DNA of 64,000 bases from Escherichia phage Turkey5. The notes beneath the pieces are model-generated. The model made no database searches, was not told the DNA's origin, and was given only the letters and a program-made list of their open reading frames with translations. The stretch is from sequence record PQ471516.1; one strand, 5' to 3'. Positions 28,898 through 34,940 of the stretch are shown piece after piece. The translations under genes and the position numbers were made by a program. How positions within the stretch are numbered: the first letter of the stretch is position 1; each line of letters opens with the position of its first letter.

Positions 28898-31597
28898 ATG
28901 TCAAAGAAAATATATGGTGGCTTAGATGTCACACATAATGTTACAGTAAAAGGGAAACGTACTGTTCAAGGTATCAATGATCAAGTTTTTGATGCCAATG
29001 GTAACATGGAACTTGATACTTATACTAAAGAAGAAATTCTTGACGTAATTAGTATGATGCCTTTGTCACATTATGGTACACATAACTATCTACCTGCTGG
29101 TGTAAGTGGTGACTTCAACGGAGCATCAGAAAACACATCACAGCGTAGAAACAAAATTCTATTAGAAGATGACGGAACATTAGTAATGTTGCGTGCTGGT
29201 ACAAACGGTAGTGTGGAAGGTCTATTCTACTCTTACCTAGCGAACGCATTAACTATTGAAGATATGGGTCGTACCGTGAATACTGGTAAGCAGTATCAAC
29301 CTGGGTTCTTGGGTTCCACAAAAGTTGCTTTCGGTTTATATAACACTGATAGTAATATAATGATTGGTCAATATAAAGATACAACTAATAGCACTACAGG
29401 TTATTTTGTATCTATTACAAACAATACACTTGATGATACTCAGCACTCAGGATTTATCATTAATCAGTACACTGACCTTTCACCACAAGGTAACATTGAA
29501 TATGCAATGATGGCAGAAGATGGTTCAATCTATGTGTTTAGTTTAGATGTTGCAGATAATAAAATGCACATGATTGTACAGCGTATTGTGTTTAATATTA
29601 GTGCTGGTACATACACTACATCACGTATATCTGGATGGACTACAAAAACATTCTACAATACAACTATCAGTGCTAATACTAATATAGTATTAACCAACAG
29701 AACTTATTCAACTGATATTGTAGATAAACCATATGCTCTTGTACCAACTAACCTACGTGGTATTGGTATATACATGACTTCATATGATTTATATGTTGCA
29801 CAACAGCCTGGTACTCAGAACTTCCGTTTCCGTTTAAATGGGGACTTATGGGCGACAATGGCAGACTATAATACACGTCCACAACATAGTTTTAGTTTCA
29901 ATTTCAATATGAGTACTAAACAATGTACGTTAGATACTGGCAATGACATTGGTTCATTCCAAGCACCTATCGTTATTACAAATACTGGGACTCAATTAGT
30001 TGCTACTGGTAATGCTCTAAACAAAGATGATTTTTATAACCACAGTGGTGCACGTAACATTTATAGTGGATATTACTATTCAGTAGAAGGTGTTGCTTTC
30101 TGTACAATATGTCCAAACCTAGCAGAACCATTACACATGGAAAAAGGTCATTACCCAGCACAATCTGTTTATAGCATGATAAATGTTAGAGCAGTGAGTT
30201 GTACAGATTTTCGTGATGGAAGAGTTGGTCCGACATTTGGTTCAGCAGTAGGGTCATATATCAACGGTGTTGAATTGTTACCTGATAACAGTACTAAACA
30301 GTTCTCTCGTGCTTCCGGTACAGGTTCTTACCAACCATCATATGCAGTGCATAAGAGTACTCCTAACTTTACGTTCAAATCACTTTCAATGGGGACTATT
30401 CAGGGTTATGAGCCAACAGCAGAACGTGCAAACGTAGCTGATACGACAAACAACCAAGTATTCATTAGTTCAATTTCAGGAAGTACAGTTACAACTAATG
30501 GTGGTGTACTAATTTGTGGTCAACGTTACTCACAGTCGTTATCATATGATAAGTACATGAATGGTACTAACGTAATTAGTGTTACTCAATCAGTACTTGA
30601 CAACTTCAGAACAGCAGAGTATGCTAAAGTTGCTAGTTCATGGAACCTATCAAGTGCATCGGGTAAAGACATGTCGTTGTTTGTTCCACAGCAATCTGAC
30701 ATTCCAGCGTTTGTGTTCCTCAGTTCTGTAACTAATAATAACCAGAACTATATTCGTGTTGCAGAAGTTAATGTGAATACCAGAGTAGGTAACATTACTA
30801 GTATTACATTTAAACGTTTAGTTTATGAAAACGTTCATGGTGATAACTTTGTTTCAAATACATCAGGTTCATTCTCTTCTTCATCTGTTGGTATGACAAT
30901 TTATGATGGTGGTTCATTCTATTTCTTAGGTGGTTCTGATCCATTAACACATAATACTATCGGTAACACAAATACACATATGTTCCGTGCTTATGTTACT
31001 AAATCCACTGCAACTATTGATAGCTTTATTATTGCGGGTGGTCATGCCAGTTATGAACAAGGTGCTCAACCAGCAGCGTTACCTGGATTGGGTTTTGGTA
31101 TTTTTGCTGCAATTGACTATTCTAACAAAATGACATTCGTACCTTTTGGAACAACTATTGCTGATTATAACGCATGGACACAGAAAGCGACTGCAATAAA
31201 CTTAGTATCACAAGACGTTGCACAAGGTTTTATCGTGTACTTCACCGAAGAAACACCAGTAATACTATCAGGTAAATCATTTACTCTACCTATTTCGAAT
31301 ATTGATTTAACAACTGTAAAAGCTAATCCAGCCAATACAACGTTTTATCTTTATATTAAAATGGAGCAAGGTAATGTTAAATACCACATAACTACTGAAG
31401 TTATTTCAGAAGCTGGTACTTCTGCATATAACGTATTTTGGATTGGAACAATTAAAACTAACTCTCTTCAAATTGAAACAGTAAATGTTGAAAAACGTTC
31501 TCGTTTGGATATATTTGGTGCATCACTAGAAGCAGCAGGTTCTTCATTCCCAGTAAGTTATGGTTTACCATCACAAACAGGATCTATCAACTGGTAA
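28898..31597 (+). CDS. large fiber-like virion protein (paralog family)
   Basis: 899 aa; N-terminal ~100 aa shared with 32214; C-terminal SFPVSYGLPSQTGSINW shared with 31610 and 32214. Confidence 0.4.
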   Translation: MSKKIYGGLDVTHNVTVKGKRTVQGINDQVFDANGNMELDTYTKEEILDVISMMPLSHYGTHNYLPAGVSGDFNGASENTSQRRNKILLEDDGTLVMLRAGTNGSVEGLFYSYLANALTIEDMGRTVNTGKQYQPGFLGSTKVAFGLYNTDSNIMIGQYKDTTNSTTGYFVSITNNTLDDTQHSGFIINQYTDLSPQGNIEYAMMAEDGSIYVFSLDVADNKMHMIVQRIVFNISAGTYTTSRISGWTTKTFYNTTISANTNIVLTNRTYSTDIVDKPYALVPTNLRGIGIYMTSYDLYVAQQPGTQNFRFRLNGDLWATMADYNTRPQHSFSFNFNMSTKQCTLDTGNDIGSFQAPIVITNTGTQLVATGNALNKDDFYNHSGARNIYSGYYYSVEGVAFCTICPNLAEPLHMEKGHYPAQSVYSMINVRAVSCTDFRDGRVGPTFGSAVGSYINGVELLPDNSTKQFSRASGTGSYQPSYAVHKSTPNFTFKSLSMGTIQGYEPTAERANVADTTNNQVFISSISGSTVTTNGGVLICGQRYSQSLSYDKYMNGTNVISVTQSVLDNFRTAEYAKVASSWNLSSASGKDMSLFVPQQSDIPAFVFLSSVTNNNQNYIRVAEVNVNTRVGNITSITFKRLVYENVHGDNFVSNTSGSFSSSSVGMTIYDGGSFYFLGGSDPLTHNTIGNTNTHMFRAYVTKSTATIDSFIIAGGHASYEQGAQPAALPGLGFGIFAAIDYSNKMTFVPFGTTIADYNAWTQKATAINLVSQDVAQGFIVYFTEETPVILSGKSFTLPISNIDLTTVKANPANTTFYLYIKMEQGNVKYHITTEVISEAGTSAYNVFWIGTIKTNSLQIETVNVEKRSRLDIFGASLEAAGSSFPVSYGLPSQTGSINW

Positions 31598-34940: not shown

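Follow-up and report, generated by a model that had tools for sequence, protein, structure and literature searches.

What do three consecutive, related genes of Escherichia phage Turkey5, two of them long and one very short, contribute to the phage particle, and why do they share both of their ends? The genes lie on the plus strand of a stretch of 64,000 nucleotides (nt) of sequence record PQ471516.1, which is the window analysed here. Gene A is found at 28898-31597 (899 amino acids, aa), gene B at 31610-32197 (195 aa) and gene C at 32214-34940 (908 aa). An earlier note, made from the letters of this DNA, had described them as three co-linear, fiber-like paralogs with divergent middles and had suggested swappable receptor-binding proteins. 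On balance, we lean towards reading A, B and C as co-expressed virion proteins, low in copy number, that belong to the tail or baseplate periphery and share anchors; A and C would carry heads, and B would be anchor only. They are probably host-recognition accessories of the tail or baseplate rather than classical fibres.

Shared ends and divergent middles

All three open reading frames (ORFs) were found on the plus strand and aligned with one another, which confirms three co-linear paralogs. The gap between A and B is 12 nt and that between B and C 16 nt, and a Shine-Dalgarno sequence of the AAGGGA type lies 5' of each gene. A and C aligned end to end over ~900 residues with 28% identity (BLASTP, E-value (E) 9e-68) and were most alike at their termini. 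The N-terminal module that had been noticed in both was recovered, with EILDVISMMPLSHYG...YLPAGVSG...LEDDGTLVMLRAGTNGS in A and ILDMMPISRIG..YLPLNVNG...IEDDGTGVVIRAGTNGS in C. In A, the conserved N-terminal region spans 28898-29236 on the plus strand (aa 1-113) and consists of a low-confidence leader and a helix, followed by the EDDGT..RAGTNGS segment. Its confidence was read from the model of the C paralog as a proxy, where the predicted local distance difference test (pLDDT) was 35-73 at aa 1-80 and >85 beyond.

The short gene B matched C (E 3e-21) and A (E 2e-16) in BLASTP over its last ~120 aa, with a weaker alignment of the N-termini. In the profile search, B aa 1-66 matched A aa 1-61 (independent E-value (iE) 9e-6) and the N-terminus of C (iE 2e-3), and B aa 77-195 matched the C-termini of A (iE 1e-29) and C (iE 1.4e-34). 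B is laid out as the N-terminal ~65 aa of the family joined to its C-terminal ~120 aa. The earlier note had understated B in this respect, as B also retains the N-terminal segment of ~65 aa. The C-terminal motif ascribed to all three proteins was present in B (RFSTYRPSTTQKGSSFPVSTGNPAQTGSIGW), C (RFLTYRPSTTKRGSAIPSSTGVPSGTGTRWK) and A (RLDIFGASLEAAGSSFPVSYGLPSQTGSINW), but A lacks the TYRPSTT part. No fourth copy of the family was found by profile search among the ORFs of the 64-kb window.

We checked the distribution of conservation in windows, as the probability of two sequences having the same residue at a column, with 73 homologs. Within ortholog groups, the termini (aa 1-120 and 781-908) scored 0.52-0.85 and the middle 0.27-0.54. 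When the A group was compared with the C group, the scores were 0.31-0.58 for the termini and 0.10-0.30 for the middle. The described pattern of conserved ends and divergent middles was therefore borne out, but the middles of A and C are still homologous to each other and are not unrelated inserts.

Origin and conservation of the short gene

In CBB, GAP32, Serratia phage BF, the pEa_SNUABM phages and Yersinia phage fHe-Yen9-04, nrdG is followed by three full-length paralogs (~900 aa). The authors of the CBB study had already recorded CBB_147-149 as paralogs. Neighbour-joining trees (no bootstrap) were calculated separately for the N-terminal 72 and the C-terminal 125 residues. In both trees, A grouped with CBB_147 and C with CBB_149, and the partner of B was CBB_148, the middle gene of full length. 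Therefore, B is the middle paralog minus ~720 internal residues.

The 195-aa B holds the middle position in Asteriusvirus and in E. coli/Salmonella relatives. This form of ~195 aa (190-211 aa) was kept in 23 clusters down to 42% identity, with 24 invariant positions. The phage is a jumbo coliphage of the genus Asteriusvirus. The trio region shares 98.7% identity with Escherichia phage vB_EcoM_JNE01 (Asteriusvirus, 355 kb), and against JNE01 the ratio of nonsynonymous to synonymous substitution rates (dN/dS) was 0.04 for A, 0.12 for B and 0.07 for C. Judged by its constant length and a dN/dS of 0.12, B is under purifying selection and is no decaying remnant. The region is ~74% identical to phages of the 121Q, PBECO4 and phAPEC6 type, where the genes are annotated as 'hypothetical'.

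A separate case is Goslar gp28 (169 aa), an independently derived anchor-only member that adjoins the full-length gp26 (locus L009, 4869-8484).

Predicted folds

The model of B (22-sequence alignment) has a beta-sandwich core at aa ~70-165 with a pLDDT of 85-95, preceded by a helix at aa 49-58. Confidence was low at aa 1-21 and 167-195. The best structure match was the receptor-binding protein (RBP) of lactococcal phage p2 (score 9.9), followed by the long tail fibre of cyanophage A-1(L) (8.4), the RBP of phage 1358 (8.3), SPP1 gp22 (7.7), the HFTV1 fibre gp42 (7.3), TssK (5.8-6.8), a phi812 baseplate protein (6.4) and Mtd (5.0). The conserved C-terminal module thus has the predicted 'shoulder' fold of siphophage RBPs and of TssK of the type VI secretion system. 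The shoulder domain trimerises, and it docks the p2 RBP and TssK on their respective baseplates.

On the plus strand, B is accordingly divided into the N-terminal segment (aa 1-66), the predicted sandwich (aa ~70-165, 31817-32104) and a tail ending in tryptophan (Trp; aa 166-195, 32105-32194). The C-terminal part of A (31220-31594, plus strand) comprises a shoulder-like beta-sandwich at aa ~775-864, a fold assigned by homology to B, and a tail at aa ~865-899 that also ends in Trp. In C, the corresponding part (34572-34937, plus strand) comprises a shoulder-like sandwich at aa ~787-879 and the conserved tail at aa 880-908 (...GSAIPSSTGVPSGTGTRWK).

The tail takes up the last ~30 residues, with the consensus ...YRPS.T..GS.(F/I)PVS.G.P...G.I.W, and its positions are among the most conserved of the family. 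A Trp was found within the last three residues in 106 of 143 diverse representatives at 50% identity. The monomer models were of low confidence over these ~30 residues. Because high conservation coincides with low confidence in the monomer, the tail peptide may fold onto a partner. In two metagenomic relatives (P0157 and P0163), the complete family including the Trp tail lies at aa ~1-997 and is followed by 400-535 more residues. These gave no Pfam or PHROG match, and the tail is thus internal there.

The model of C (AlphaFold2, 73 sequences) is all-beta, with a mean pLDDT of 87.2 and a predicted template modelling score of 0.80. Only aa 1-80 and the C-terminal ~25 residues were of low confidence. 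The variable middle of C (aa ~121-780; 32574-34553, plus strand) is predicted to contain a beta-propeller fold that resembles those of fucose lectins and sialidases; lectins and sialidases were the best of its propeller matches. No internal repeat was found by hhalign, neither between the halves of the middle region nor inside each half (probability <1%), and for this reason the numbers of propellers and of blades cannot be stated from the sequence. In BFVD, the architecture of the C model as a whole was found again in proteins of other jumbo phages (CBB, BF, PhiEaH1, Joad, SEGD1, Kwan, Derbicus and Aeromonas PS1), which bear the label 'structural protein' or 'virion structural protein'.

The description of the proteins as fiber-like was not upheld. 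A, B and C matched no Pfam fibre or tailspike domain, no fibrous fold was predicted, and neither their sequences nor the C model showed a beta-helix, a triple beta-spiral, a coiled-coil shaft or a Pfam fibre domain. In the C model, only propeller folds were matched. More generally, no Pfam match was obtained for A, B and C (E<=1) or for the homologs in Goslar, RAY and EL, and PDB sequence searches gave no credible match (single sequences; profiles A2, A1 and A3). The idea of swappable heads on a common anchor fared better. Its conserved ends and variable middle are there, and the predicted fold of the end is of an anchoring type, but the middle of A and C has diverged and was not swapped.

Two weak candidates were set aside. 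In C, aa 481-552 gave a cyanovirin-N match (E 0.025) that was gone with the ortholog profile and was treated as chance. In B, the N-terminal segment gave a BLIP-II/RCC1-blade match that was not significant (E 0.17).

Homologs in virions

The earlier note had named absence from virions as a finding that would speak against it. By published mass spectrometry (MS), homologs are virion-associated. The A ortholog of phAPEC6, gp323c (75% aa identity), was detected in the structural proteome with 4 peptides and 5.6% coverage (PMC7247149). The phAPEC6 orthologs of B and C are intact ORFs in MK817115 (locus L004, 8709-9293 and 9313-12039) without a GenBank coding sequence (CDS). Because the record has no CDS for either, their absence from the phAPEC6 proteome list is uninformative. 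In GAP32 virions, both GAP32_144 (the counterpart of the B lineage) and GAP32_145 (the counterpart of C) were MS-positive (PMC5259590 Suppl. S5). The label 'structural protein' of CBB_148/149 rests on this GAP32 MS and not on CBB's own MS.

Quantities are available for Goslar virions purified in caesium chloride. The full-length gp026 was found with 21 peptides (31.8% coverage) and the mini protein gp028 with 10 peptides (61% coverage; bioRxiv 10.64898/2026.04.21.720040 Table S4). The low, median and high estimates of the copy number were 8.5, 12.8 and 20.1 for gp026 and 9.5, 14.3 and 22.4 for gp028. The product of the gene between them, gp027, was present in equimolar amounts, and the fibre proteins gp025 and gp029 were far more abundant (bioRxiv 10.64898/2026.04.21.720040). 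With this low abundance, a role in capsid decoration was rejected. Goslar gp26-gp28 (~9-22 copies by label-free quantification MS) are not discussed in the Goslar paper.

Family distribution and fusions

A and C are full-length members of PHROG 3573 (A: E 3e-241, aa 1-899; C: E 1e-227, aa 7-907), and B belongs to PHROG 26864 (E 1e-73, aa 1-195). Orthologs of A are CBB_147, GAP32_143 and phAPEC6 gp323c; those of C are CBB_149 and GAP32_145. Further homologs (PHROG 3573, 26864 and 7449) are fHe-Yen9-04 g137-139 and 121Q 499-501, with E down to 0. Among 1.84 billion proteins, the family profile found 582 cluster representatives (E<=1e-3). The majority have 870-1000 aa; in some of 1400-2488 aa, the family is embedded.

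Within the Rak2-like phages, the layout of the trio and its position after nrdG are kept. A homolog in RaK2 is not listed in the CBB comparison table. Beyond the Rak2-like phages, clear homologs were found in chimalliviruses and their allies. Goslar gp26 matched the family profile over its full length (E 5e-78) and gp28 matched with E 1e-10; both are without the Trp tail. RAY gp19 and gp20 are full-length matches with extensions (locus L007, 586-8897), and in RAY gp18 the C-terminal module and tail are preceded by a different N-terminus, of a 'tail protein' (E 4e-31). The tail motif of RAY gp20 is internal (aa ~1011 of 1151), with 150 further residues after it. EL gp114 and gp115 (locus L008, 4869-12060) matched only at profile positions ~52-250 and ~700-906: both ends are retained, and the family profile no longer detects the middle. 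No family member was detected in phiKZ (hmmsearch of six-frame ORFs of 125-205 kb, no match at E<=1).

In chimalliviruses, the surroundings of these homologs are gene clusters for tail fibres or the baseplate. In Goslar, the family lies inside the gp25-gp29 fibre cluster, and RAY gp18-20 and EL gp114-116 adjoin the 'baseplate assembly protein' genes RAY gp21 and EL gp117. The phiKZ gene with the same annotation is gp164, a likeness to RAY gp21 and EL gp117 by annotation alone; gp164 is the central spike in the phiKZ atlas. Long members fuse the family core to segments of PHROGs annotated as tail fibre or tail protein, and a Pfam Phage_fiber_2 repeat was found at the junction in one distant, longer relative (P0222 only).

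Proposed role and alternative explanations

The elements shared by the three proteins would serve assembly: an N-terminal segment of ~65 aa with one helix, a C-terminal shoulder-like sandwich, which may trimerise as its structural counterparts do, and an extended, Trp-ended tail of ~30 aa that could dock on a partner. Between the N-terminal segment and the sandwich, A and C would insert a propeller-rich, lectin- or sialidase-like structure of ~700 aa, and their middles would act as two different glycan-recognition heads. B, the middle paralog after its internal deletion, would survive as a selected anchor-only subunit, possibly an adaptor, a spacer or a partner in the same kind of socket at the baseplate periphery.

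Several observations weigh against this proposal. The Asteriusvirus trio sits among nucleotide-metabolism genes, away from the main structural block. Compared with phAPEC6 (A 75%, B 63%, C 64%), it has diverged just moderately more than the neighbouring enzymes (74-94%). The fold matches (6-15% identity) rest on predicted models, the propeller similarity is generic and says little on the ligand, and the shoulder-like module is C-terminal here, unlike in every matched RBP or TssK. Moreover, virion MS of CBB missed CBB_147-149 (PMC5259590), and MS detection of Deimos-Minion gp19 and RAY gp18 comes from crude lysates only. In Goslar, the peripheral baseplate was not resolved.

If the propellers were protein-protein scaffolds, the three proteins could instead connect or stabilise the peripheral baseplate in a structural, TssK-like role, with no part in host recognition. 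We regard this as unlikely, although it survives better than the other alternatives. The predicted shoulder fold would suit it, but a connector is hard to reconcile with a middle that is the least conserved part of the protein and is undetectable by profile in EL gp114/115. For RaK2, whose fibre set differs, no homolog is listed; among the propeller matches, lectins and sialidases rank best, and relatives are fused to tail-fibre segments.

Somewhat less likely still, A and C may be virion-borne glycosidases or depolymerases (sialidase or glycoside hydrolase (GH)-type propeller) that degrade surface polysaccharide. The model of C does show the propeller fold of sialidase/BNR or GH-type enzymes. 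An Asp-box/BNR or family sequence signature was absent, with no Pfam match at E<=1 and no PDB sequence match for single sequences or profiles.

The proposal of anchored heads can also be taken further. The Trp tail and the shoulder-like module may form a plug and socket by which A, B and C would co-assemble with one another (hetero-oligomers or chains) and with the baseplate, B acting as an adaptor or chain terminator; in the extreme, this would account for the hairs of phAPEC6 and CBB. We offer this as speculation with a small chance of being right.

A pure polymer is very improbable. Here, the Trp tail would dock on the next N-terminal or shoulder part, and head-to-tail polymers would form the tail and capsid whiskers of phAPEC6 and CBB. 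Asteriusvirus phAPEC6 and CBB both bear unexplained hairs, the conserved N- and C-terminal segments have a low pLDDT in monomer models, as would be expected of interface peptides, and the DUF7941 proteins of Goslar (an unrelated family) make filaments via a similar docking of tail to domain. Abundance is low, however: gp323c was found with 4 peptides and 5.6% coverage versus 68% for the sheath. CBB virions, despite their stable hairs, gave no detection of these proteins, Goslar has only ~10-20 copies, and the family also occurs in GAP32, Goslar, RAY and EL, none of which is reported to be hairy.

The least probable alternative, that the proteins are no tail components but head-internal, ejected or non-structural proteins co-purifying with virions, draws on the vicinity of nrdD/nrdG and a nucleotidyltransferase in Asteriusvirus, on several PHROGs matching relatives that are filed under 'head and packaging' and on the non-virion assemblies also present in the Goslar preparation, but it hardly stands against a shoulder fold common to RBPs, fibres and TssK, relatives fused to tail-fibre segments, the place of the family in tail-fibre/baseplate clusters of Goslar, RAY and EL, and annotators who independently named relatives 'minor tail protein'.

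Comparison with known systems

The predicted beta-sandwich of the trio corresponds to the shoulder of p2 ORF18 and the N-terminal domain of TssK, but the match is not one of sequence: identity is 6-13%, and sequence searches gave no hit. The order of parts differs as well. In p2 ORF18 and TssK, the domain is N-terminal and is followed by neck and head, whereas in A and C no other folded domain comes after it, and the putative head precedes it. In the trio, the module is followed by a conserved, Trp-terminated tail. Moreover, the host phage here, unlike p2, is a myovirus without a Dit-type platform. SPP1 gp22 is a siphovirus protein that is unrelated in sequence and has neither the N-terminal segment nor the Trp tail.

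The phiKZ cluster gp131-gp135 is the closest functional analogy. Like the trio, it consists of co-linear paralogs of a jumbo phage with a very short member (gp132, 110 aa). These proteins have a common terminal attachment region and assemble on the outer baseplate into a hetero-hexameric base of the fibre; the end of gp131 is a seven-bladed propeller thought to bind the host (PMC13250141). There is no detectable homology between gp131-gp135 and the family of the trio.

What was known before and what the locus adds

The genes were already in GenBank, and the paralogy in CBB was known. New are the module map, the C-terminal shoulder fold with a head before it (both as predicted), the family-wide Trp-ended tail, the deletion origin and conservation of the headless paralog with its independent parallel in Goslar gp28, and the link between Rak2-like phages and chimalliviruses. 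Modular proteins for receptor binding or as baseplate accessories are a known theme, and the trio is a variant of it and not a new type of system.

Asteriusvirus and related jumbo phages are isolated for therapy and biocontrol, e.g. against E. coli O157:H7, and their host-range determinants are largely unassigned. A and C are nominated as candidates for modules of host recognition whose boundary is defined for use in engineering, and a conserved anchor-only paralog is flagged. A family of about 580 clusters without a Pfam model gains a testable architecture of shared anchors and propeller heads. The peripheral baseplate density of Goslar is still unassigned, and models of gp26/gp28 could help to interpret existing cryo-electron microscopy maps.

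Putative transcription unit and neighbourhood

Only two terminator-like hairpins were found in 28300-35600, and they are positioned exactly before A and after C, both on the plus strand and followed by a T-run. The first (28799-28827) lies directly 3' of nrdG and has a 7-bp stem with five GC pairs and a TTTTTGCGTT tail. The second (34946-34977) lies directly 3' of gene C and has a 9-bp stem with five GC pairs. The number of hairpins in the region did not exceed the shuffle expectation; their placement alone is suggestive of the boundaries of an A-B-C unit. A scan for sigma-70 promoters gave 23 sites versus 31 expected. The 80-nt spacer from the nrdG terminator to the start of A (28818-28897) contains CATAAATA and TATAATAAA. 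The consensus of T4-type late promoters is TATAAATA, and the two spacer sequences look similar to it, as candidates only.

The trio lies directly downstream of the anaerobic ribonucleotide reductase gene nrdD (26206-28008), a DUF4326 gene and nrdG. The DUF4326 protein (PF14216, E 7.5e-25) is encoded at 28016-28345, between nrdD and nrdG, and CBB has a second DUF4326 gene elsewhere in the genome. A tail protein (39344-42133, 929 aa, phrog_2871; 'tail formation protein GpI' in JNE01) is encoded 4.4 kb downstream of the trio, and a tail sheath (PF17482 C-terminal domain) follows at 59198-61861 in the same window. Non-structural genes separate the trio from both, including an RlaP-type nucleotidyltransferase (37372-38625).

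Directly after C, three small paralogs of 198, 178 and 166 aa (PHROG 18641/7868) are arranged in tandem at 34957-36565. They have the common motif DxDRRxLIxxKYKxS. Identity to the phAPEC6 counterparts was 33-35% versus 64-94% for the flanking genes, and these paralogs form the fastest-evolving stretch of the neighbourhood.

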